Assembly (NCBI GenBank): GCA_002310235.1
Contig: DBYO01000035.1
Location: 418-64,417 of the forward strand
DNA from: Bacteroidales bacterium UBA1184
GTDB taxonomy: Bacteria > Bacteroidota > Bacteroidia > Bacteroidales > ML635J-15
Reading direction: 5' to 3'
DNA: 64,000 nt
Under the pieces are notes generated by a model. It was not told where the DNA came from, ran no database searches, and saw nothing but the letters and a program-made list of their open reading frames with translations. The number at the start of each line of letters is the position of its first letter. The first letter of the stretch is position 1. Positions 5,740 through 64,000 of this stretch are shown here, in pieces. Both the position numbers and the translations under genes were made by a program.

Positions 5740-7410
5740 CTACTTTCCCTTGCCCGTTTTAACCTCTATTTTCAGTCGTTTTCCCATAAACCTACGGTTC
5801 TTGAAAACCTTCAAAACCTTTTCCTGCAAGTCGGAATCGACCTCGAAGAAAGTATGTCCTGTAAGAATCTCGATCTTACCGACTTCGGCACCAGCAAGCA
5901 AGTCACTCGAATTGATAACATCCATCAGTTTCATCTTGGTAAGGCCATCTTTCTCGCCTACAGTTATGAAAAACTTGGTATATTTCAACTTACGGCTGCG
6001 CTTGTCGAACTTATCGTCACCCGACCTACGCGAAGCACCTTTCTTCTCGTCCTGCTTACGACCTTTGCCCTTCTTGTCCTTGTCGTAGATGTTAATGTCG
6101 GCAGCACCCTTGTAGTAGTTGAGGAAGCGGTTGAACTCTGTGGAAACAAACCTCTTGATTAGTTCTTCTCTATCGAGCGACTGAAGCCTAAGCATAATTG
6201 CAGGAAGGAAATCCTTTATCTGGTTGTCGATTGTCTCTATAGCCATCACCTTGTCAATCATCGACATAAGCTGAATCATACAGATATCCTTGCCGTCGGG
6301 AATTTTCTTGCGGACAATCTCCTTCTTGAGCAACTTCTCAATTTCACGGATCTTGTATTCTTCGCGGGTGTGGACAATCGTCACACACATTCCGCGCTTG
6401 CCAGCCCTACCGGTTCGTCCGCTTCGGTGAATGTAAGTTTCCCTATCATCGGGAAGATTGTAGTTGATGATATGCGTAAGATCGTTGACATCGATTCCGC
6501 GTGCCGCCACGTCGGTAGCGACAAGGATCTGCAAATGCTTGGAACGGAATTTAGCCATTACCATGTCGCGCTGTGCCTGCGACAAATCGCCATGCAGAGA
6601 ATCGGCGTTGTAGCCGTCCTGTATCAACTTGTCGGCAACTTCCTGCGTTTCCTTGCGGGTACGGCAGAAAACGATTCCGTATATATTCGGATTTATATCG
6701 ACTATACGCTTCAATGCAAGATAGCGGTTCTTTGCACTAACGAGATAATACACATGGTCGACATTTTCGGCGCCGGAATTTTTCTTTCCAACCGAAATTT
6801 CCATTGGCTGCATCATGTAGTCCTCGGCAATGCGACGAATGTCGTCGGGCATAGTAGCCGAAAACAAAAGCGTCTGCTTGAAGTCGGGCGTTGACGACAA
6901 AATATTATCCAAATCCTCCTTGAAACCCATATCGAGCATTTCGTCGGCTTCGTCAAGCACAAGAGTTTTTATTTTTCCTATCTTCAACGCTTTGCGTTCA
7001 ATCAAATCCATCACACGTCCAGGCGTTCCCACCACGATATGCGCACCAGCCTTCAGCGACTTTATCTGGGGTTCGATAGAAGCACCACCATACACAGCTA
7101 CAATCTTCACATCGGGCAGAAATTCGGCAAACGAAACCAAGTCCTTGGCAATCTGAACACATAGTTCACGTGTAGGCGAAAGGACAATCGCCTGAGTGTG
7201 CTGCGATTTAGCATCAATTCTTTCAATTATCGGAAGACCAAATGCAGCGGTTTTTCCAGTACCCGTCTGCGCCAAACCGATAATATCCTTCTCGGACGAC
7301 AGCAATTGGGGAATTACTTTTTCTTGAATAGGTGTAGGAGCTTCGAACCCACGCTTCTTTATTGCGGCCAACAATTTTTCGTTTAGCCCAAAATTTTCAA
7401 ATGATGACAT
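5740..7410 (-). CDS. deaD: DEAD-box ATP-dependent RNA helicase (DeaD/CsdA-like, with basic tail and DbpA-like C-terminal RNA-binding domain)
   Basis: The 556-aa ORF carries FEAPTPIQ (Q motif), AQTGTGKT, DEAD, SAT and HRSGRTGRAG. Its K/R-rich tail is followed by FFITVGEKDGL...GKIEI. Confidence 0.93.
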   Translation of the reverse strand: MSSFENFGLNEKLLAAIKKRGFEAPTPIQEKVIPQLLSSEKDIIGLAQTGTGKTAAFGLPIIERIDAKSQHTQAIVLSPTRELCVQIAKDLVSFAEFLPDVKIVAVYGGASIEPQIKSLKAGAHIVVGTPGRVMDLIERKALKIGKIKTLVLDEADEMLDMGFKEDLDNILSSTPDFKQTLLFSATMPDDIRRIAEDYMMQPMEISVGKKNSGAENVDHVYYLVSAKNRYLALKRIVDINPNIYGIVFCRTRKETQEVADKLIQDGYNADSLHGDLSQAQRDMVMAKFRSKHLQILVATDVAARGIDVNDLTHIINYNLPDDRETYIHRSGRTGRAGKRGMCVTIVHTREEYKIREIEKLLKKEIVRKKIPDGKDICMIQLMSMIDKVMAIETIDNQIKDFLPAIMLRLQSLDREELIKRFVSTEFNRFLNYYKGAADINIYDKDKKGKGRKQDEKKGASRRSGDDKFDKRSRKLKYTKFFITVGEKDGLTKMKLMDVINSSDLLAGAEVGKIEILTGHTFFEVDSDLQEKVLKVFKNRRFMGKRLKIEVKTGKGK

Positions 7411-7427
7411 AAAATTTTATTTGGGCA

Positions 7428-7435
7428 CAAAAATA
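7428..7435 (-). promoter_or_regulatory. -7 box (TAttTTTG) upstream of deaD
   Basis: The reverse complement of caaaaata is tatttttg, which ends 17 nt upstream of the ATG at 7410. Confidence 0.45.
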
Positions 7436-7444
7436 CAACTTTAT

Positions 7445-7472
7445 TTACGATTGACGAATTACGAATTACGAT
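7445..7472. repeat. Tandem heptamer (TTACGAT/TGACGAA/TTACGAA/TTACGAT), 4 units
   Basis: Read directly from the sequence. It lies just upstream of the deaD -7 box. Confidence 0.85.
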
Positions 7473-7479
7473 TGGCTAC

Positions 7480-7622
7480 GCCGAGCTAAAGGTTGGGCAA
7501 AAGGCCAGCAGAAGACCAGTCTTGATGTCGAACAGAAGACCAGTCCTACAGTCTACAAGACAGTTAGACTGTGAGACAACTGGACTGCTAGCCTTCGAGC
7601 CTGTTAGCCTTTGAGCCTTAGG
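7480..7622. repeat. Intergenic element copy A: [CT]AAAGG-rich half followed by about 9 phased 8-nt units CTKNNAGM
   Basis: The phased units are ctacaaga, cagttaga, ctgtgaga, caactgga, ctgctagc, cttcgagc, ctgttagc and ctttgagc (7553-7616). Copy B at 50505-50652 has the same architecture and shares some units. Confidence 0.8.
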
Positions 7623-7634
7623 TGTCGCCCTACA

Positions 7635-9470
7635 TCAATTATCCCTAACACACCTTAAACTAAGGAAACTGTCAGGTGGAAGTTTTTCATACCTCAAATC
7701 TGGAGAATAACTCGACAAATAACTATAATAAACATTATCGTTATCATACATTGTTGTACACCAGAAAAATGCATTGTTTCCAAAGCCTGTACTATAAGAT
7801 GTTCCTGCCGGCAACGCATTGAAACCTGTTTCTCCGAAATATCCACTTGACGTAAGGAGACCATCATCCCAAAGGTCTGCCTCTCCAGCCAACTTTGATC
7901 CTACATCGTAATACCTACCGCCAAGCGTATTATTTAGACGCGACCATTCCCCATAACTTGGCACATGCCAGCCATCGGGACAAATGCCCTGAACACCGCT
8001 AGGACTGGTATTGCTAGACTCTGCTCCATCCATAATTGCAGGCCAGTTATATAGATAACCATATTGCTGCACATTAGCAGAACTATCATTAGGATAATAA
8101 CGATATTTTTCTGATGTACTAGTACTGGTACTTAAGGTAGTATTTCCCACGTAGCGCAAATTCTCTGCCATCCATGTTTGCGTACCAATGGTAACGGTGG
8201 CATAGGTATTACCATCGCGCACATCGGTAAACGAACCCTGCGGATATGAAATAGTGTCGTTGCCAATATTACCACCGGATCCGCCACCGCCAGTATCCCC
8301 TCCTCCATTCTGCGACGGCAAATATACAGGTCGTATTGCCATTCCATAAGCCCTACCGTACCACCCTAAAACACATGTGTCGGGATTGTAATACATACAC
8401 ACTGCAGAACTCGGATGTTCTGGATTCAATGAGCTAGTCCAATAATACCCCTGGTCTGCAAGAGGAGTATATTCACTATCATCGTACCTAACATCAAATA
8501 GAGGTAAAAATATCTTGTTGCCATTCGGCCCAATGAAATACATACCGTCCACATAATTTATTGATGACCACTGACGAGTGCAGCTGGTTATCAACTCACT
8601 GAATTCCTCTTGCGTAGGTATTCGCCAGTTCGGGCCAAGTGTTGCGGTTGCAGCATCGTCTGATGCCTCGAGAACCATAAGGGTATCTGTAAATCCATTG
8701 TTTCCGTATTGCGACATATTGCAATATTTGGTCAATGTATTATATGTTCCGTTGCAATAATCATAAATACACCACTCAAACACAGACTTTGTTGCAGTTT
8801 CACCCCACGCGTACGCGTCGCTATAATCATTGGGAATTCTTGAACCTAAATTGCGAGTTGCCCATAGTGTTCCGCTCGGCAGACCAAGGTCAACATATTC
8901 TGGAATTTCCTCCGTATGATCATCACTGCCGCCAAAATTTATGTGGCGAGCCTCCCATTTGCCTGTTCTTTCATTATACACAAGCACATCACCATCCTGC
9001 GGATTCTCTATATCAACATCAAAGTTTACCAGTTTCTGAGCTGTAACTGCATAATTTGACGAAAAAGCATAAAAGCCGCTTGCAATTTCAACGAACCCGA
9101 GACTTGTAAAATCGCCAGCAATATCGGTTTGGTACTCTACCTGCATCCAGTAGTTTCCATTCTGCCACGGAATTTCGTCGAAAGGCACATTTGTTGAGCC
9201 ATTGCAACCACAGGCAAGCACATTACGATTAATCATAAACGACATAAAACCATTCTCGTTGGTAGTGGTCTGATGTATAGCACAATACACAGGTGTACCA
9301 TTCTGTCCACCTTCGTAGAATGTCACACGCACTGTAATGGTTCGGTTTGCTAGCGGCACATTGTCGGAATTGCGCACCGTAGCGGAAAAATTTACTGTCT
9401 GCGGAACCCCCTGCGAAAAAGCAGCGAAAGCTACGACAATTATCATAAAAAAGGAAACCAATCTCTTCAT
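7635..9470 (-). CDS. Secreted surface protein: N-terminal Ig/tail-fibre-like domain + DUF1566-like module + C-terminal FISUMP (Fibrobacter succinogenes major paralogous, TIGR02145-type) domain
   Basis: The track ORF is 7635..9506. I prefer Met13 as the start (MKRLVSFFMIIVVAFAAFSQ signal peptide) because it removes the overlap with the upstream stop at 9490. The middle module reads VDLGLPSGTLWATRNLG..YAWGE..WRIPTQEEFSEL..YWTSS..AIRPV. The C-terminal module reads DVRDGNTYATVTIGTQTWMAENL..YGYLYNW..GICPDGWHVPS..EWSRL..GFNALPAG..LRCVRD. Confidence 0.85.
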   Translation of the reverse strand: MKRLVSFFMIIVVAFAAFSQGVPQTVNFSATVRNSDNVPLANRTITVRVTFYEGGQNGTPVYCAIHQTTTNENGFMSFMINRNVLACGCNGSTNVPFDEIPWQNGNYWMQVEYQTDIAGDFTSLGFVEIASGFYAFSSNYAVTAQKLVNFDVDIENPQDGDVLVYNERTGKWEARHINFGGSDDHTEEIPEYVDLGLPSGTLWATRNLGSRIPNDYSDAYAWGETATKSVFEWCIYDYCNGTYNTLTKYCNMSQYGNNGFTDTLMVLEASDDAATATLGPNWRIPTQEEFSELITSCTRQWSSINYVDGMYFIGPNGNKIFLPLFDVRYDDSEYTPLADQGYYWTSSLNPEHPSSAVCMYYNPDTCVLGWYGRAYGMAIRPVYLPSQNGGGDTGGGGSGGNIGNDTISYPQGSFTDVRDGNTYATVTIGTQTWMAENLRYVGNTTLSTSTSTSEKYRYYPNDSSANVQQYGYLYNWPAIMDGAESSNTSPSGVQGICPDGWHVPSYGEWSRLNNTLGGRYYDVGSKLAGEADLWDDGLLTSSGYFGETGFNALPAGTSYSTGFGNNAFFWCTTMYDNDNVYYSYLSSYSPDLRYEKLPPDSFLSLRCVRDN

Positions 9471-57278: not shown

Positions 57279-57308
57279 AAAAAAAGGTCTCCATTCGAGA
57301 CCTTTTTT
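57279..57308. terminator. Bidirectional rho-independent terminator between tig and hsdM
   Basis: The sequence is aaaaaaaggtctc-cattc-gagacctttttt. Confidence 0.85.
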
Positions 57309-57330: not shown

Positions 57331-58842
57331 TTATTTGCCCAAATCCTCAATTATATTCTTAAAGCATTTCAAACTGCTTTCGATATTTTCAACAATGTCG
57401 GCGGCAATTTCCTCAGGCTCGGGAAGATTGTCGAGATCGGTAAGGCTCTTGTCCTTTATCCAGAATATGTCGAGGTTGGTTTTGTCGCGGGCAACAATCT
57501 CATCGTAAGTGAACTTGCGCCAACGTCCTTCGGGATTTTCCTCGCTCCAAGTTTCGGTACGCAGATTGCGATTTTCGGGATTATAGCACTTGATAAAATC
57601 GGACAAATCCTCGAATGTGAGCGGTGACTTCTTGAGCGTGTGGTGAATGTTGGTGCGGTAGTCGTAAATCCAAATGTTCCTGGTCTGCACTTCCTTGCTT
57701 GCAGGACGATTGTCGAAGAAAAGCACATTTGCCTTTACTCCGTTTGCATAGAAAATACCGGTAGGCAGACGAAGAATAGTGTGCAGTTCGGTGGTTTTCA
57801 TCAGTTGCTTGCGAATCTCCTCGCCTGCTCCTCCTTCGAAAAGTACATTGTCGGGCAACACGACAGCCGCCTGACCGTTGATTTTCAACAAAGTTTTGAT
57901 ATGCTGAAGGAAATTCAACTGCTTGTTGGAAGTGGTTTCCCAGAAATCCTGACGGTTGTAACTCAAATCCTCCTTCTCCACTTCGCCGTCCTCGTTGGTA
58001 ATGGTAATGCTGCTCTTTTTTCCGAAAGGCGGATTTGTGAGCACATAGTCGTAGCGGTTGCCTGTGTCGGACACAAGTGCATCGTTGGGCGAAATGAAAT
58101 CCTCGCTGTCGAGTTCGCCAATGTTGTGCAGATAAAGATTCATCAGGCACAGACGGCGCGTGTTGGCCACAATCTCGTTGCCGAAGAAGGTCTTTTTCTT
58201 CAGAAACAGTTTCTGGTCTTTGTTGAGCGGCTGACCTGCAATATAATCGTAGGCGGCAAGGAAGAAACCACCCGTTCCGCAGGCTGGGTCAATTATGGTC
58301 TTTTCTGGTTTCGGACGCACGCACTCCACCATTGCACGAATCAACGCACGGGGCGTAAAATACTGACCAGCACCGCTTTTGGTGTCTTCGGCATTCTTTT
58401 CGAGCAAGCCCTCGTATATCTTGCCTTTCACGTCAGAACCCATCAGCGACCAGTTTTCTCGGTTAATCATCTCGATTACGCGAAGCAGTTTGGCAGGATC
58501 CTGAATCTTGTTCTGGCTCTTAGTGTAGATTTGCCCCAACATTCCTTTCTCCGTGCCAAGGCTGCGAAGCATCTGCACATAGTAGGCCTCCAATTCGGCA
58601 CCGCGCTTGCTTGTGAGAGTTTCCCAGTCGCACATTTCACCGCCGGGGATTTCCTTTCCTTCGGCATCCTTTAGGCGCGGAAACTTCAACCCCTTGTTGT
58701 AAGGCGGTTTGTTCATCTCGTCGGCCATCTTCAAAAAGAGCAGATAGGTAATTTGCTCCAAATAGTCGCCGTAACTTACGCCATCGTCGCGAAGGACATT
58801 GGCCATATTCCAGATTTTCGATATTATTGTTGATTCGGTCAT
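57331..58842 (-). CDS. hsdM: Type I restriction-modification system, DNA methyltransferase subunit HsdM
   Basis: It has the HsdM N-domain (LRDDGVSYGDYLEQITYLLFLKMADE), the SAM motif IIDPACGTGGF and the catalytic motif NPPFG. I prefer the ATG at 58842 (MTESTII...) over the track's TTG at 58863. Confidence 0.93.
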   Translation of the reverse strand: MTESTIISKIWNMANVLRDDGVSYGDYLEQITYLLFLKMADEMNKPPYNKGLKFPRLKDAEGKEIPGGEMCDWETLTSKRGAELEAYYVQMLRSLGTEKGMLGQIYTKSQNKIQDPAKLLRVIEMINRENWSLMGSDVKGKIYEGLLEKNAEDTKSGAGQYFTPRALIRAMVECVRPKPEKTIIDPACGTGGFFLAAYDYIAGQPLNKDQKLFLKKKTFFGNEIVANTRRLCLMNLYLHNIGELDSEDFISPNDALVSDTGNRYDYVLTNPPFGKKSSITITNEDGEVEKEDLSYNRQDFWETTSNKQLNFLQHIKTLLKINGQAAVVLPDNVLFEGGAGEEIRKQLMKTTELHTILRLPTGIFYANGVKANVLFFDNRPASKEVQTRNIWIYDYRTNIHHTLKKSPLTFEDLSDFIKCYNPENRNLRTETWSEENPEGRWRKFTYDEIVARDKTNLDIFWIKDKSLTDLDNLPEPEEIAADIVENIESSLKCFKNIIEDLGK

Positions 58843-58863: not shown

Positions 58864-59568
58864 CTATAATCCATAATAGTATTTTATGGCGATACCTATG
58901 AATATCGCTATGGAAAAACTTAGTAATGTACCTATCAATACATATTCTGACTTGGCTTTATCGCCTTCGGCAAAACGCAAAATTGATTTCGCAGCTATGA
59001 TAAATCCAACAGCTTCATATTGTCCTAATAATATAAATGTAAACGCGAGTAACCTCTCTACTATTCCTATCAATTTTCCTGCATTAGGCAAATCATCCCC
59101 ACATTCTTCTTCCGTCCCTTTTGACACCTTTATATTTACCGCCTTAAAAATCTCCTTAATTATTATGTTAGACGGCTTTATGCAAACAAGGACACCCAAC
59201 AGTAATGCCAAATGCATTTCCTCCACACAACACAACCAATTAGGCAAATTACAATTCCACAGATAACAAACTGCCACAATGACCATCAAATGTATCAACT
59301 GGTCAATAAAGAAAATGCCCTTACACTTGGACGCATAACATTTCATTGCATCGACAAGCAAATGAGAAACCGCTATGATTAATGCAACCCACCAAAAACC
59401 GAATGAAAATGAGAACAGCCAAGCGCACAAAAAGGTTATAAGAACATGTATATAAAGTTTCGGCGACCTAAAACCTCTTTTTCCTTTGTCTGCGCACGAT
59501 TTATCTGTCTGTAAATAGAAATCACTAATTGTGTGGGCAATTATTTGTAATAATAAAAACCGTATCAT
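58864..59568 (-). CDS. DUF3307-like polytopic membrane protein
   Basis: The 234-aa ORF has at least 5 hydrophobic segments and polar motifs AHTISDFYLQ, VSHLLVDAMK and FIDQLIHL. It starts 2 nt after the SatD-like stop and ends 21 nt before the hsdM ATG. The family name is from memory. Confidence 0.6.
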   Translation of the reverse strand: MIRFLLLQIIAHTISDFYLQTDKSCADKGKRGFRSPKLYIHVLITFLCAWLFSFSFGFWWVALIIAVSHLLVDAMKCYASKCKGIFFIDQLIHLMVIVAVCYLWNCNLPNWLCCVEEMHLALLLGVLVCIKPSNIIIKEIFKAVNIKVSKGTEEECGDDLPNAGKLIGIVERLLAFTFILLGQYEAVGFIIAAKSILRFAEGDKAKSEYVLIGTLLSFSIAIFIGIAIKYYYGL

Positions 59569-59570
59569 AA

Positions 59571-60263
59571 CTAAAAGTTTATTTGTTCGTAATACTTCAG
59601 CAACTGCTCAACAGCATTCCAACCAAACAATGTCGAATGCTGATTTACAGCAGATTGATTAATACCCAATTTTTCGGATATTTCGTTCTCGTTTTTTCCT
59701 AACAGACGATAATATATGACTTCACATTGACGCTCCGTTGCTCGCTTAAACAATACATCCAACAAACCCAAATAAGCATTTATCTGTTGTGTCAATTTAC
59801 AATTCGAAGACTCGAAAAACAATGTATTTTTTATCACTACTTTTGATTTGTTCGAAGTTCGCTGGCGTTCTATTGCCCTTCCCGAAGCATATATGGCCTC
59901 GCCATCCAACATATTTGTCTGCTTATCGGCAATACGCATTTCACCAACGGCAATGGCTATTCTAACACCATATGTCTTAAACATATTTAAACGCCTCTTG
60001 TCTACATTTTGATCTGCACATTCTGTGTCAACCTTAAATTTTTTTATCATCGTTTTTAAAAGCAAGGCTATACGCAATGAGTTTTGTGGATTTCCCATAT
60101 AAATTTCCACGCTATCACCTTTGCTTAATCGGCCCCATGTATCTTCGTATTCTTTTTCTATTTGCTCAACAAAGACCCCTATCTCGTTCTGCAATTGACT
60201 TAAAGCACAAGGTGTCAGTTCTGTAGAAGATACTATGTCCGCTGAAATTGTAGCTCTATTCAT
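59571..60263 (-). CDS. SatD-like protein: N-terminal class III nucleotidyl-cyclase-like domain + C-terminal sigma-70 region 4/LuxR-like HTH
   Basis: The 230-aa ORF has the ordered motifs ISADIVSSTEL, GDSVEIYMGNPQNSLRIALLL, VRIAIAVGEM and GEAIYASGRAIE. Its C-terminus reads ERQCEVIYYRLLGKNENEISEKLGINQSAVNQH. The family and fold calls are by eye. Confidence 0.6.
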   Translation of the reverse strand: MNRATISADIVSSTELTPCALSQLQNEIGVFVEQIEKEYEDTWGRLSKGDSVEIYMGNPQNSLRIALLLKTMIKKFKVDTECADQNVDKRRLNMFKTYGVRIAIAVGEMRIADKQTNMLDGEAIYASGRAIERQRTSNKSKVVIKNTLFFESSNCKLTQQINAYLGLLDVLFKRATERQCEVIYYRLLGKNENEISEKLGINQSAVNQHSTLFGWNAVEQLLKYYEQINF

Positions 60264-60279
60264 AAATTTTATTTTTTTG

Positions 60280-60287
60280 CAAAGATA
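60280..60287 (-). promoter_or_regulatory. -7 box (TAtcTTTG) for the satD-like/DUF3307/hsdM operon
   Basis: The reverse complement of caaagata is tatctttg, which ends 16 nt upstream of the ATG at 60263. Confidence 0.5.
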
Positions 60288-60294
60288 CTAAATT

Positions 60295-60374
60295 TTATAA
60301 GCCAAAAAACTTATAAACTGTATTTATAAGCCAAATAACTTATAAACCATATTTATAAGCCAAATAACTTATAA
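60295..60374. promoter_or_regulatory. Three phased palindromes TTATAAG-N8-CTTATAA (29-bp spacing): candidate operator array
   Basis: Left arms are at 60295, 60324 and 60353, and right arms at 60310, 60339 and 60368. The spacer is ccaaaaaa in copy 1 and ccaaataa in copies 2 and 3. The array sits immediately upstream of the -7 box. Confidence 0.7.
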
Positions 60375-60395
60375 ATCGTTTCAAAACAAAACTTA

Positions 60396-60530
60396 TTATT
60401 TTGTTTGTAACAACCAGTCTATCACATTGATTTTCTGTAAACCATCAACTACGCTTCCATCGAAATCCAATGAAAGCAGATACTTTGGATTAGCATCACG
60501 AATACACTTTAATGACGAAATTTCCCATAT
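60396..60530 (-). pseudogene. Start-less 44-codon open frame with protein-like composition (possible gene remnant)
   Basis: The minus frame reads IWEISSLKCIRDANPKYLLSLDFDGSVVDGLQKINVIDWLLQTK*, bounded upstream by TGA, with no ATG or GTG start. Confidence 0.3.
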
Positions 60531-60600
60531 TCATTCGCAGAGCTCCAAATATGTATTTCTTTTTATCATACAATAAAAATTGTGATTGCAAATATACACA

Positions 60601-60642
60601 ATAATGACGAAAACTACAAAATTCAACAAATTTCGTCATTAT
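60601..60642 (-). terminator. 12-bp perfect hairpin downstream of hsdS
   Basis: The arms are ataatgacgaaa and tttcgtcattat with an 18-nt loop. There is no clean U-tract. A third aatgacgaaa copy lies at 60511-60520. Confidence 0.45.
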
Positions 60643-60664
60643 CGTATAGGTGACTTCGATAGAT

Positions 60665-61864
60665 TCAGCCACAATTTGCGGTCGTTGAACCTGTTAAGAC
60701 AACCAATTCCCCGCTAAATGCCTTTTTGAGTATGCTTTGTCTCAGTGCCTCGGTCTTTTGCAACGATTCGGTAATGCGTGCCTCGGCTGCCTCGGCCTGC
60801 GACAGGCGCGATTCTATCTCCTCAACTATGCGCTGCTGCTCGTAAAGAGAAGGAAAAGGTATTTCACAATTTCTTATAATTCCTTGGTTTAAATTACTCA
60901 TAGTTGTTCCATTACTTGAATTCTCAAAATATGAAACAATTTTCTGACTGCTCAATAAATGACACAAATAAGTCGCATTCAGCAATTTACCACCTCTAAT
61001 AAACAAACTACCTGTTCCGCACAGCATTCCATCCTCTTTTCTTGAAACCACTGCACACCTTCCCATCTCTCCTCTCCGACCTAATATAACATCATCTATT
61101 TGTAAATAATAATTAGACAACTCTTTGTATTTTTCCAATGATACAGTAAACGAATTATAAGGAAATATCTTTTTATTATTAATGTGCATCGGATTAATTA
61201 ATGGAATACCACCTTCAATATAGTCGGACTTATGTAATTGCGTACCAAATGGTCCTATTTGAATTTTCTCTGCCACTTCTCCCAACTTCACCGTTTCCCA
61301 TTTCCCATCATCATTGTTCAGCCAATGGTTTAGCACTGCCTGCCTGTATATTTTTAGTTGCTGCTGTGCGGTGCGCAAGTGCTCCACGGCTTTGTCGAGT
61401 TCGGCAAATAGGGATTCTATGCGGGAAACTATGAGACGCTGGGTGGGGGTGTCAACATCGGGAATTTCAAAATTCCACAACAAATTGGGTTCAATATGCG
61501 GTATTCCTACTCCTCTTGGATTGCTATTCAACACTTTGTATTTCGATTGAAGAAAATAAAACAAAAAATCGTTTGTGTATTTTTCACTGCTTATTTTCGC
61601 CAAAGTCGAACCTATTGCACCTTCAACACCTCTACCAACAAAACCACAACGTGCACCGTCCCAAACAATTAAAACATCGTCTGGCGTACAAAATGTGCAA
61701 TTCTCCCCATCGGTATAATTGTCTATAATACCTTTCTCAAAGGCTTTAATATCAACATACGGAATTGCAAAACCATTCGTCTTTTCTTTAGAAACGTTTT
61801 TGGGTTTCTTGCCTTTGATACTGTGGGCAATTTCTATGAGCTTATATTTATTTAACAATCTCAT
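60665..61864 (-). CDS. hsdS: Type I restriction-modification system, specificity subunit HsdS (two target-recognition domains)
   Basis: The 399-aa ORF has two AT-rich variable halves separated and followed by GC-richer conserved helices (QRLIVSRIESLFAELDKAVEHLRTAQQQLKIYRQAVL; EQQRIVEEIESRLSQAEAAE..LRQSILKKAFSGEL). Confidence 0.9.
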   Translation of the reverse strand: MRLLNKYKLIEIAHSIKGKKPKNVSKEKTNGFAIPYVDIKAFEKGIIDNYTDGENCTFCTPDDVLIVWDGARCGFVGRGVEGAIGSTLAKISSEKYTNDFLFYFLQSKYKVLNSNPRGVGIPHIEPNLLWNFEIPDVDTPTQRLIVSRIESLFAELDKAVEHLRTAQQQLKIYRQAVLNHWLNNDDGKWETVKLGEVAEKIQIGPFGTQLHKSDYIEGGIPLINPMHINNKKIFPYNSFTVSLEKYKELSNYYLQIDDVILGRRGEMGRCAVVSRKEDGMLCGTGSLFIRGGKLLNATYLCHLLSSQKIVSYFENSSNGTTMSNLNQGIIRNCEIPFPSLYEQQRIVEEIESRLSQAEAAEARITESLQKTEALRQSILKKAFSGELVVLTGSTTANCG

Positions 61865-61870
61865 TGTATA

Positions 61871-63577
61871 TCAAAATAAAGATGGATATCCAAGTTGTAT
61901 ATCATATTTAACGAGTATTTTTTTTACCTTTTCAAATTCATTATCTTGAAGTAAATGGTATTTTTCATTTAAGTTAATTTTTTTAGCCATAAAATCTATA
62001 TTATAATCTTCCTCTATTCCTAATACCATTTGACTATTCTGAGGTTGCTCTCTCAGTATAAATTCATAAATATTTTTTATATGAGGAATGTCTTGCGCTT
62101 GTTGATTAGGAGAATCAATAATTATTGGGCAAAACATACTTGATGAATTGTTATTAGCTATATGCAGTATAGAAAAATAATATGCCATGATTGCTCTAAG
62201 AGACGAACTTCCTGTATTTTTAGGTTCTAAGTATATGTTTTTTATAGATGAAACATCATATTCTACATCTAGCTGTTGTAAATATATAGACATATATCTT
62301 TTATAGTCTTCTTTTATTTTCTCTCTTTTTTCTCTTTGCAATTTCTTTTCGTCTTTAATCTTTTGCTCCAAATCTGTTATTTCAAAATTTATTGCTTCCA
62401 ACCTTCTTTTTCGCTCACACATATCTTCTTCAAAGAATCGTATCGTCTCTTTAGCCCCTTCATTAACAATTATATCTGAAAGAGTTATATTTTCCTTTTG
62501 CTGATGCATTAACTCACTAATTTTATCATATTTTTCTTTATAAGAATTAATATTTTTCCTTTCTTCTTCAATCTTATCGTTTATTGCTTTTAAATCTTTT
62601 TCTAAATCTTGAAGAATGACAGAACATCGATTTTCTTCTTTAATAAAAGCAAAACGATGGTCCATACTATTAGTATAGTTCATACCACAAGTTGGACAAA
62701 CTAACTTATCTGGTTTTGATAATGAATATTTATAATCATCATTGAGTTCTTTTAATGTATGTTTTGTAATATTTATTTGGGAAAACAAATTATACTTTTG
62801 ATCATAATATTCTATTAATTGCGCCTTACTTTTTTTCTGCTTAGCAATCAAATCACTACATTCTTGTTCTAATCTTTTTATTTCACATTGGAAATCATTT
62901 AAAGTCATTGCAAAATATTTTATACTTGCCGTATCTTTTATTTTATTATCCAGGACTGATATTATATTATATTCTTTTTCCTCATTATCATAATTTATCT
63001 TCTTTGTTTCTCTATCACATTGTAATTCATATAGTTTTCTACTATTATATCCGATATGATATTCTATTGTGTTCTTTTTGTAATCTTTAATCTGTTGCAA
63101 ACCTTTAAATGAATTCCATGCTGTTGTCCAACCTGAATCTTGGTCAATATAATAAGGAATAAAAACAAATGCAGGGGGAGGAACAATAAAGTTACCATTT
63201 TTATCGGGAAGTTTTATTACAAATCCTAATAAGTTCGCAATATACTGACTATATTCTCCAGAAATCTTTGAATATGATTTTAAAAGTTGATCTTTAGAAT
63301 CGTAAATCGATATAGTATTATCAACTTTTCTATAAATAGAATACTCCTCATTATTAATTGAGAATCGCAATAAAACATCAACCCTCGCATCTTTCCATTT
63401 TGGATTAACCTTCAATGAATCAGCACCGAACGCATAATATATACTTTTAATTAAAGAACTTTTCCCAGTATCATTTGTCCCTATTATTATTGTTCTTTGC
63501 TGATCGAACACTACTTCTCTCGCCCTTTTCTCCTTGAAAGAACAGAGCAGTATCTTTATTAATTTGAAGCTTTTCAT
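61871..63577 (-). CDS. ABC/SMC-like ATPase with coiled-coil insertion and CxxC hook (Rad50/LmuB-like; defence-associated candidate)
   Basis: The 568-aa ORF has Walker A GTNDTGKS (aa 33-40), a Q-loop-like YIDQDSGW, a K/E-rich helical region at aa ~185-440 with CPTCG at aa 294-298 (C294/C297; nt 62687-62698), a signature-like TGSSSLR, and Walker B/D-loop-like FCPIIIDSPNQQ (aa ~482-493). Its stop lies 6 nt before the hsdS start. Confidence 0.7.
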   Translation of the reverse strand: MKSFKLIKILLCSFKEKRAREVVFDQQRTIIIGTNDTGKSSLIKSIYYAFGADSLKVNPKWKDARVDVLLRFSINNEEYSIYRKVDNTISIYDSKDQLLKSYSKISGEYSQYIANLLGFVIKLPDKNGNFIVPPPAFVFIPYYIDQDSGWTTAWNSFKGLQQIKDYKKNTIEYHIGYNSRKLYELQCDRETKKINYDNEEKEYNIISVLDNKIKDTASIKYFAMTLNDFQCEIKRLEQECSDLIAKQKKSKAQLIEYYDQKYNLFSQINITKHTLKELNDDYKYSLSKPDKLVCPTCGMNYTNSMDHRFAFIKEENRCSVILQDLEKDLKAINDKIEEERKNINSYKEKYDKISELMHQQKENITLSDIIVNEGAKETIRFFEEDMCERKRRLEAINFEITDLEQKIKDEKKLQREKREKIKEDYKRYMSIYLQQLDVEYDVSSIKNIYLEPKNTGSSSLRAIMAYYFSILHIANNNSSSMFCPIIIDSPNQQAQDIPHIKNIYEFILREQPQNSQMVLGIEEDYNIDFMAKKINLNEKYHLLQDNEFEKVKKILVKYDIQLGYPSLF

Positions 63578-63624
63578 ATTGTTTATTTCTAAGATTTCTT
63601 ATTATCTTTTTGTAATTATCATCT

Positions 63625-64000
63625 TCATTCATAACACTTTATCATTATTATTGCTTTAATATATTGTTCATTATATATATCCTGATTTACAGCATCACTA
63701 GAATATAAATCAAAACACTCTTTAATTATTTGCATAAATGTTTTTCCTTCAGGCTTTATGTTTACCTTTATCATATCAATTTTTTCTTCAATTTTTTTGA
63801 GAATCACATGATTGGGATTCATAGAATCAATCATATAGTTGTCAATCACACGTAAATACAACTTTATATCTCCAAATAGAATATTTTCTTCTCCTAATGT
63901 TCTTTTGATACCATCTTTTATCGAACTCCAATCTTTGGTTGTGCAATATTTCTCCATAAATGTTTTAAACTCAGAACGTTTATATCCTTTTTTTTTCACA
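63625..64000 (-). CDS. Hypothetical protein upstream of the ATPase (at least 124 aa; N-terminus possibly beyond the window)
   Basis: The frame is open to the window edge. The track's 'M' is a GTG at 63997-63999. The sequence is very AT-rich and I did not recognise a family. Confidence 0.5.
   Translation of the reverse strand, partial: VKKKGYKRSEFKTFMEKYCTTKDWSSIKDGIKRTLGEENILFGDIKLYLRVIDNYMIDSMNPNHVILKKIEEKIDMIKVNIKPEGKTFMQIIKECFDLYSSDAVNQDIYNEQYIKAIIMIKCYE

Follow-up and report, generated by a model that had tools for sequence, protein, structure and literature searches.

Type I ('short') Lamassu is a two-gene defence system, and the structures and biochemistry available for BcLmuAB, together with those of the three-component VcLmuACB, are the source of the mechanism proposed here (bioRxiv 10.1101/2025.06.23.660979; PMC12663957). 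According to these studies, DNA ends activate Lamassu in vitro, and in the solved complexes the ATPase LmuB binds DNA ends without sequence specificity. BcLmuB and VcLmuB are both reported to have a 'naturally deviant Walker B' with slow ATP hydrolysis, and the CQYC of the Bacillus LmuB has been termed a canonical Zn-hook motif (bioRxiv 10.1101/2025.06.23.660979); in short Lamassu the Walker B follows the pattern hhhhD[Q/S/T/E], and the published phylogeny derives Lamassu from SbcCD (PMC12663957). It is also known that defence genes can be embedded in type I restriction-modification (R-M), BREX, DISARM and Hma loci, where they are co-oriented in 96.7% ('guilt-by-embedding', Payne et al. 2024); earlier examples in type I R-M loci are PrrC in EcoprrI, TgvAB in VPI-2 of V. 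cholerae and the rlo genes of C. jejuni. Here we analyse a stretch of 64,000 nucleotides (nt) of contig DBYO01000035.1 from Bacteroidales bacterium UBA1184 (the window), near the end of which a gene for an SMC-like ATPase is packed against hsdS. We conclude that this gene very probably belongs to a complete type I Lamassu, acquired horizontally as a self-contained cassette in the hsdR-hsdS junction within a chromosomal type I R-M operon of a rumen Bacteroidales bacterium, and likely independent of the Hsd proteins.

The ATPase, a protein of 568 amino acids (aa), is LmuB, a Rad50-like ABC ATPase with a CxxC hook. Its residues 1-557 align with positions 1-556 of the 565 positions of the PADLOC LmuB profile PDLC00249 (E-value 7.3e-167), and 12 further PADLOC LmuB models match it below 1e-28; the 25 best of its 34 PADLOC matches are LmuB, PtuA and GajA models. 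The sole sequence match in the PDB is the 'Lamassu protein LmuB' (9ux7/9ux8; E-value 1.2e-9 for 9ux7_A), collinear over residues 7-543, with the CPTC of the query aligned to the CQYC of the Bacillus protein. Among Pfam families there are only sub-threshold matches to SMC_N (E-value 5e-6), AAA_15 and AAA_21 and none to DUF3732, and among NCBIfam families only far-sub-threshold matches to Rad50, SMC and PtuA (23-28 bits for Rad50 at cut-offs of 700-1087).

The catalytic motifs and the hook (Table 1) were examined in an alignment of 20 homologues with 31-84% identity to the query, in which P134-P135-A136 and D488-x-P490-x-Q492-Q493-x-Q495 are invariant as well. The Walker B, IIIDS, fits the short-Lamassu pattern (PMC12663957). 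The AlphaFold2 model built on this alignment (mean predicted local distance difference test score, pLDDT, 86.4) has a split ABC head and two long antiparallel helical arms, formed by residues 180-286 and 305-435 and broken at about 217-225 and 363-366; the CxxC is on a short beta-hairpin at the apex, between the helices 226-286 and 305-363, and is a predicted zinc-hook that would dimerise LmuB. The top match of the model in a Foldseek search of the PDB is type I LmuB in its complex with LmuA and DNA (9ux7_A, E-value 1.2e-20). The next ranks are held by type II LmuB chains (9uxh_F, 9hqx_B, 9hqu), with YydD (9a6c) among them, followed by SMC, Rad50, JetC and AriA. In both the alignment and the model LmuB ends at the ABC head, with no extra C-terminal domain. 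A first-pass annotation of the window, made from its letters alone, had described this protein as a Rad50/LmuB-like ATPase with a CxxC hook, had listed five motif strings in the order given in Table 1 and had compared the motif after the Walker B to that of Lamassu; all of this agrees with the profile, structure and model matches, and the ORF map reproduces both the 568-aa open reading frame (ORF) and its spacing of 47 and 6 nt from the neighbouring genes.

Upstream of lmuB, the window holds only the last 124 codons of a gene that runs past the window end; the GTG at 63999 that looks like its start codon is an artefact of the edge. The fragment matches the PADLOC LmuA profile PDLC00238 (E-value 4.7e-12, profile positions 241-362 of 365). 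The rest of the gene was recovered from public contigs: the exact LmuB sequence occurs on ten contigs from cattle-rumen samples, the longest of which (L001, 16.6 kb) is identical to the window across the full overlap of 9332 bp and adds 7.3 kb past the window end (window coordinate = 71267 minus L001 coordinate). On L001, the complete lmuA spans 6554-7642 (window equivalent 63625 to 64713) and encodes 362 aa, which match the PADLOC LmuA profile end to end (E-value 8.4e-93) and include Pfam Cap4_nuclease in the N-terminal domain, past the window end. Residues D54, Q71 and K73 are invariant in 20 homologues and form a D...QxK pattern of the Cap4/PD-(D/E)xK type. LmuA is a Cap4-type nuclease effector, the nuclease role being predicted; a comparison with solved structures gave no significant sequence match, either with the single sequence or with a 20-sequence profile, even at E-values up to 10. 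The first-pass annotation had noted a gene of at least 124 aa in the position of an ABC-3C middle component or effector. The ORF indeed ends 47 nt upstream of lmuB and the effector alternative holds, but the gene is about three times as long, with 362 codons, and is not a middle component.

L001 is matched at 100% identity by nine further contigs, which come from different rumen samples. A variant contig (L009), seen in five samples, differs from the locus by two substitutions in 3383 nt, both in lmuA: L009:447 and L009:790 correspond to L001 6710 and 7053, i.e. to window equivalents 64557 and 64214 beyond the window end, and they give E53*, a nonsense change adjoining the invariant D54, and S167I. 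The E53* allele looks like a natural knock-out of a toxic nuclease effector.

No further ORF, and hence no LmuC, is present in the cassette, as seen from inspection of its three gaps (hsdR-lmuA, 1 nt; lmuA-lmuB, 47 nt; lmuB-hsdS, 6 nt). Because there is no room for lmuC around lmuA and lmuB, we assign the system to type I Lamassu and not to type II or ABC-3C, whose middle component between the effector and the ATPase is lacking from the locus. All examined features of type I were found, namely a full-length LmuB, a coiled coil with CxxC, Walker A and deviant Walker B, an upstream LmuA, and the lack of LmuC. The protein differs from PrrC and RloC in having no PrrC model among the 25 best of its 34 PADLOC matches and no domain, such as the anticodon nuclease fused to the ATPase in those guardians, following the ABC head; it differs from Rad50 and SbcC in falling below the family thresholds and in having a Cap4-type nuclease, not Mre11/SbcD, as the partner. 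The nearest non-self relatives in one comparison are 39-43% identical.

The gene order on L001 is hsdR-lmuA-lmuB-hsdS-(401 nt)-p230-DUF3307-hsdM, followed by a hairpin terminator and the convergent tig gene. The type I R-M carrier is complete, with intact hsdR, hsdS and hsdM in a single co-oriented cluster. HsdR, encoded beyond the window end, has 934 aa and the domains ResIII, SWI2_SNF2 and EcoEI_R_C (PADLOC REase_I, E-value 5e-52); HsdS matches Pfam Methylase_S in two stretches (E-value 4.5e-28) and PADLOC Specificity_I (E-value 5e-53); HsdM matches Pfam N6_Mtase (E-value 4.7e-69), HsdM_N, and PADLOC MTase_I (E-value 1.2e-192). The drop in G+C content that had been noticed by hand counts in the first-pass annotation is real, with 0.24-0.29 over 61750-64000 against 0.47-0.52 in hsdM. 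The G+C content of third codon positions is 0.20 in lmuA and lmuB, compared to 0.53 in hsdR, 0.60 in hsdM and 0.58 in tig; therefore, the drop is not solely an amino-acid effect.

Table 1. Features of the Lamassu cassette, its LmuB motifs and the adjacent genes, in window coordinates.
Feature	Position	Strand	LmuB residues	Description
lmuA, 3' part	63625..64000	-		codons ~239-362 of 362; C-terminal domain of the effector LmuA
lmuA-lmuB spacer	63578..63624	-		47 nt; without any ORF fit for LmuC
lmuB	61871..63577	-		568-aa SMC/Rad50-like ABC ATPase with coiled coil and CxxC hook
Walker A GTNDTGKS	63458..63481	-	33-40	G33, N35, T37, G38, K39, S40 invariant in 20 homologues
Q-loop region YIDQDSGW	63128..63151	-	143-150	Y143, D145, Q146, D147, W150 invariant
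hook motif CPTCG	62684..62698	-	294-298	C294, P295, C297, G298 invariant; apex of predicted antiparallel coiled coil
ABC signature-like TGSSSLR	62195..62215	-	455-461	G456, S457, R461 invariant
deviant Walker B and D-loop IIIDSPNQQ	62099..62125	-	485-493	Ser in place of the usual catalytic Glu after Asp
hsdS	60665..61864	-		399 aa; type I R-M specificity subunit; starts 6 nt past the lmuB stop codon
intergenic region hsdS-p230	60264..60664	-		401 nt; promoter-like motif and tandem palindromic units
p230	59571..60263	-		230 aa; weak C-terminal helix-turn-helix; first gene of second embedded cassette, in the hsdS-hsdM slot
DUF3307 protein	58864..59568	-		234 aa; second gene of the p230 cassette; Pfam DUF3307, E-value 5e-25
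hsdM	57331..58842	-		methyltransferase of the type I R-M system; 503 aa in the gene calls of public contigs
terminator-like hairpin, bidirectional	57280..57308	.		between hsdM and tig; L001 13959-13987

In a survey with one genome per species we found 411 LmuB relatives and examined the best 80 loci. LmuA is encoded directly upstream of LmuB in 79 of these 80 loci, in most of them with a spacing of about 47-60 nt. A search with hsdR, hsdS and hsdM profiles detected type I genes within 10 kb in four loci only (L038, L046, L054 and L069), and in no case (0/80) was the pair embedded. More distant LmuB relatives (<37% identity) reside on 42 plasmids and in 13 temperate Klebsiella phages. Given the constancy of the pair, the rarity of its linkage to hsd genes and its occurrence on plasmids and phages, LmuAB is therefore a self-contained mobile module, and embedding in an hsd operon is not a property of the LmuAB family.

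The nine closest metagenomic LmuB relatives (P0002, P0003, P0004, P0006, P0007, P0008, P0009, P0010 and P0013) were looked up singly. Four of them (P0002, P0004, P0007 and P0009) are situated in the slot between hsdR and hsdS. The LmuB of P0002 is 84% identical to that of the window, and its hsdS fragment, 89% identical to the window hsdS, starts 6 nt past lmuB; in P0004, P0007 and P0009, where LmuB identity is about 40%, the arrangement is each time hsdR-lmuA-lmuB-(x)-hsdS. The lmuA-lmuB spacing in these other embedded loci is 44-54 nt. The embedded carriers share 53-63% identity in hsdR and 40-55% in LmuB, and a neighbour-joining tree (without support values) sets the window together with P0002 apart from a clade of P0004, P0007 and P0009. 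Of the remaining relatives, P0003, P0006, P0008 and P0010 are not embedded, and P0013 merely adjoins a divergently oriented hsdM-hsdS pair. Embedding of Lamassu in hsd operons is thus a recurrent capture in a promiscuous slot, with probably at least two captures.

The free-standing LmuAB of P0010 (L184:3342-9704) directly follows a pair of SIR2_2 and DUF87 ATPase genes. The element is flanked by a serine recombinase and a tyrosine integrase and is, therefore, a defence island on an integrative element.

The slot itself was characterised from the side of the carrier. At least 582 metagenomic relatives of hsdR were found, and the best 80 (63-100% identity; L094-L173) were examined; these retain the order hsdR-hsdS-hsdM. 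Nine loci are fully compact, with junctions of 0-8 nt, and others contain at least 500 nt of extra DNA, at the hsdR-hsdS junction in 24 of 55 loci and at the hsdS-hsdM junction in 33 of 50. The cargo comprises 96 ORFs in 56 protein clusters, with G+C content mostly lower than that of hsdR, and all ORFs but five small ones are co-oriented with the operon. By Pfam and other profiles it includes RhuM; Schlafen-AlbA2/HATPase_c_4 with DUF4062; DUF488; HigB with HTH-M78; DUF433 with PIN; GIY-YIG, DUF6161, GmrSD, YhcG, a deaminase, an HD protein and AAA_14/DUF4143; as well as SIR2-APAZ with short pAgo, Septu PtuA (in L119 followed by an HNH protein), PDC-S06, a ThsA-like SIR2 and a TIR-like protein. 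The hsdR-hsdS slot of L157 (6669-9829) houses a complete short pAgo system, formed by SIR2-APAZ (PADLOC E-value 2.4e-159) and a class I short pAgo (E-value 2.5e-174), so that multi-gene systems besides Lamassu use this junction. We conclude that the hsd slot is an exchange point for many different defence cassettes.

The borders of the cassette are sharp. DNA homology with eight close relatives (hsdR DNA identity 74-81%) ends exactly at the TAA stop codon of hsdR and is seen again only where hsdS is conserved and in hsdM. Direct and inverted repeats, such as transposon, integron or att signatures, were sought in the flanks, and none were found at the borders; the only matches are A-rich chance ones within genes. 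The simplest mechanism would be cassette exchange by homologous recombination via the conserved hsd flanks.

Several recurrent types of cargo are unannotated. Two clusters have no match in either Pfam or PADLOC, L167:14547-16385 (612 aa, four members) and L101:12888-13865, and three have none in Pfam, L149:4190-5020 (276 aa, always after a DUF488 protein), L153:11718-12725 and L133:6238-6885. These clusters are candidates for new defence genes.

The second slot of the window operon, between hsdS and hsdM, is occupied as well. The p230-DUF3307 cassette (58864-60263, minus strand) is, by 'guilt-by-embedding', a defence candidate. Its p230 has a GerE match below the Pfam cut-off (E-value 6.8e-4), and neither of its two proteins has a PADLOC or NCBIfam match. 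The same pair is found in the hsdS-hsdM slot of L097 (81% and 79% identity) and L098 (23% and 33%).

The arrangement of transcription signals was also considered. The Bacteroidetes promoter consensus TTTG...TAnnTTTG is present 7 nt ahead of the hsdR start as well as between hsdS and p230 (60589-60620); the only other match on the contig is upstream of the operon, at L001 303-334. A scan for terminator-like hairpins from the start of hsdR to the end of hsdM yielded a single strong site, the one after hsdM (Table 1), and a sigma-70 promoter scan was uninformative in this AT-rich Bacteroidales sequence (48 sites, 34 expected). From these sequence signals, lmuAB probably shares transcription with its carrier, being read from the hsdR promoter, with hsdS expression reading through the cassette. 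Just upstream of p230, at 60294-60375, there are 2.8 tandem units of 29 nt, each an imperfect palindrome TTTATAAG-N8-CTTATAAA, followed by a TAtcTTTG motif about 17 nt ahead of the p230 start. A segment of about 100 nt with three palindromic units and the promoter-like motif is conserved ahead of p230 in L097 and ahead of a cargo with Septu PtuA in L166. As it is retained in three loci whatever the cargo, it looks like the operator and promoter of the second transcription unit of the operon and not like a cargo-specific element.

By analogy with BcLmuAB and VcLmuACB, the system could act as follows. A LmuB dimer, joined via the coiled coils and the hook, would keep one LmuA monomer inactive. 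When phage infection gives rise to double-stranded DNA ends or replication intermediates, the LmuB heads would bind these, and ATP, hydrolysed slowly owing to the deviant Walker B, would lead to release of LmuA. The freed LmuA would then tetramerise through its C-terminal domain, the portion encoded within the window, and the tetramer would degrade DNA indiscriminately, thus aborting the infection. The cassette would most likely work independently of the Hsd proteins, the two systems having transcription in common. For the window LmuAB, the stoichiometry, the trigger, the abortive outcome and the co-transcription are all inferred.

Three other explanations of the locus have to be compared with an independent Lamassu cassette. 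That the ATPase is a housekeeping repair protein of the Rad50, SbcC, RecN or RecF type, an outcome against which the first-pass annotation had weighed its own proposal, has next to no probability. It could be suspected from the weak N-terminal SMC_N match (E-value 5e-6, below the cut-off), from the Rad50 models (28 bits at cut-offs of about 1000) and from the Rad50 and SMC heads lower in the Foldseek list, but all such scores are far under the curated cut-offs, full-length matches to LmuB profiles are overwhelming (PADLOC E-value 7.3e-167), Mre11/SbcD is not the partner, and the gene has defence-gene neighbours, foreign composition and a patchy distribution including plasmids and phages. Hence this family was rejected. 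It is only slightly less improbable that LmuB is an SMC-like ATPase borrowing HsdS as a sequence-specific targeting subunit, which the first-pass annotation had offered as the alternative to an embedded Lamassu-like system. The 6-nt junction between lmuB and hsdS and their probable co-transcription are all that speaks for it, whereas the operon supplies hsdS with a cognate hsdM and hsdR, both complete, and hsdS directly follows hsdR in compact relatives and very different cargo in others; moreover, the conserved partner of LmuB is LmuA and not HsdS, the pair being self-contained in 79 of 80 loci and present on plasmids and temperate phages, and LmuB in the solved complexes recognises DNA ends irrespective of sequence. 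The embedded Lamassu, the other of the two proposals, is the one that the PADLOC and structure matches uphold. The accompanying remark that an SMC-like ATPase next to a specificity subunit is an unusual pairing was overstated, as embedding in type I R-M loci has been described and dozens of different cargoes occur at the hsdR-hsdS junction.

The third explanation, more probable than these two but still unlikely, is a functional coupling of Lamassu with type I R-M, either as a second layer triggered by DNA ends that HsdR makes on incoming DNA or as a PrrC-like guardian firing when phage anti-restriction proteins disable Hsd, the seamless arrangement being selected for. LmuAB in the hsdR-hsdS slot of four further lineages, with the mutual identities given above and with junctions of -4 to +35 nt in three of the four, would be consistent with it, and so would the tree, whose split suggests at least two captures, although it carries no support values. 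The activation of Lamassu by DNA ends in vitro points in the same direction, and there are precedents for an interplay of embedded genes with their carrier, namely PrrC-EcoprrI and TgvAB, whose protection is stronger within the whole cluster. Lamassu could then have been captured at least twice because both systems cooperate in a restriction-then-suicide relay, triggered by HsdR-cut ends or by Hsd complexes stalled through anti-restriction proteins; such a relay, to which we would likewise assign a low probability, would be analogous to PrrC-EcoprrI and would rest on an SMC-like DNA-end sensor. Against it, hsd embedding is absent from all 80 species-representative LmuAB loci, of which only four contain hsdM or hsdS in the surrounding 10 kb, and from five of the nine nearest LmuB relatives. 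LmuB and LmuA are collinear between embedded and free loci, with identical invariant residues and no extra domain, and the slot is promiscuous, its 56 protein clusters including unrelated systems.

Thus, an independent Lamassu cassette remains the preferred explanation, and several observations weigh against it or against its parts. The presence of four of the nine closest metagenomic LmuB relatives in the hsdR-hsdS slot, with equally tight junctions, exceeds what would be expected from casual co-occurrence in islands and speaks against the independence of LmuAB from Hsd. For the activity, the trigger and the abortive phenotype, the extrapolation starts from proteins with no more than about 20% identity (BcLmuB). 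The nuclease assignment of LmuA draws on HMM (hidden Markov model) matches and three conserved residues, with no significant sequence match to a solved structure. Finally, the promoter and terminator sites are consensus matches only, and the three promoter-motif matches on the contig are in themselves not significant, as 17 of 200 shuffles gave this number.

The hsdR-hsdS-hsdM operon is widely conserved (hsdR 63-89% identical) in rumen, marine and freshwater metagenomes. Its two cargo slots are stop-codon-precise; some relatives have them empty, and others contain Lamassu, other defence systems, toxin-antitoxin pairs and unannotated cassettes. It is, therefore, a compact natural test bed for the 'guilt-by-embedding' discovery of defence genes such as p230-DUF3307, for cassette swapping at a stop-codon-precise junction, and for finding out if restriction and the systems embedded with it work together.

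That defence genes can lie within type I R-M loci was known before; what the window contributes is a two-gene Lamassu, rather divergent, of a rumen Bacteroidales bacterium that is uncultured. No paper with Lamassu in such an operon turned up in the literature search, and the supplements of Payne et al. 2024 contain no occurrence of Lamassu, lmuB or DUF3307. The locus resembles the known embedded genes in the co-oriented cargo, the tight junctions and the variable slot content that includes known systems, and the co-orientation of all cargo ORFs but five small ones agrees with the figure of 96.7% of Payne et al. 2024; the difference is that the cargo here is Lamassu. As distinct from PrrC, there is no evidence of the window Lamassu monitoring the Hsd complex.

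The window LmuB is like Rad50 and SbcC in its split ABC head, its antiparallel coiled coil and its CxxC hook, but the coiled coil is much shorter, the Walker B is deviant, the partner is a Cap4-type nuclease and the scores are far under the cut-offs. With type II Lamassu, DdmABC and ABC-3C systems (LmuA-LmuC-LmuB) it shares a homologous LmuB fold (9uxh_F, 9hqx_B, 9nyg_B) and, in many members, a Cap4-type LmuA, and both types are proposed to share the sensing of DNA ends and the tetramerisation of LmuA (bioRxiv 10.1101/2025.06.23.660979); however, the window locus has no LmuC, and its LmuB is shorter and far less similar in sequence, with 13-14% identity in structural alignments. The closest described system is the type I BcLmuAB of Bacillus cellulasensis NIO-1130 (PDB 9ux7/9ux8; system of Doron et al. 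2018), whose BcLmuB is the best match of the window LmuB by both structure and sequence. The two loci differ in that BcLmuB and the window LmuB are only about 20% identical in the Foldseek alignment, the window LmuA has no detectable sequence similarity to any solved chain, and the window cassette lies between hsdR and hsdS in a rumen Bacteroidales bacterium, the Bacillus system being free-standing. They have in common the order lmuA-lmuB without lmuC, a LmuA whose N-terminal domain is a nuclease of the Cap4/DUF4297 type and is joined by a C-terminal domain, and a LmuB of about 565 aa that combines Walker A and a deviant Walker B, in which no Glu follows the Asp, with a coiled coil that is kinked and a CxxC hook.

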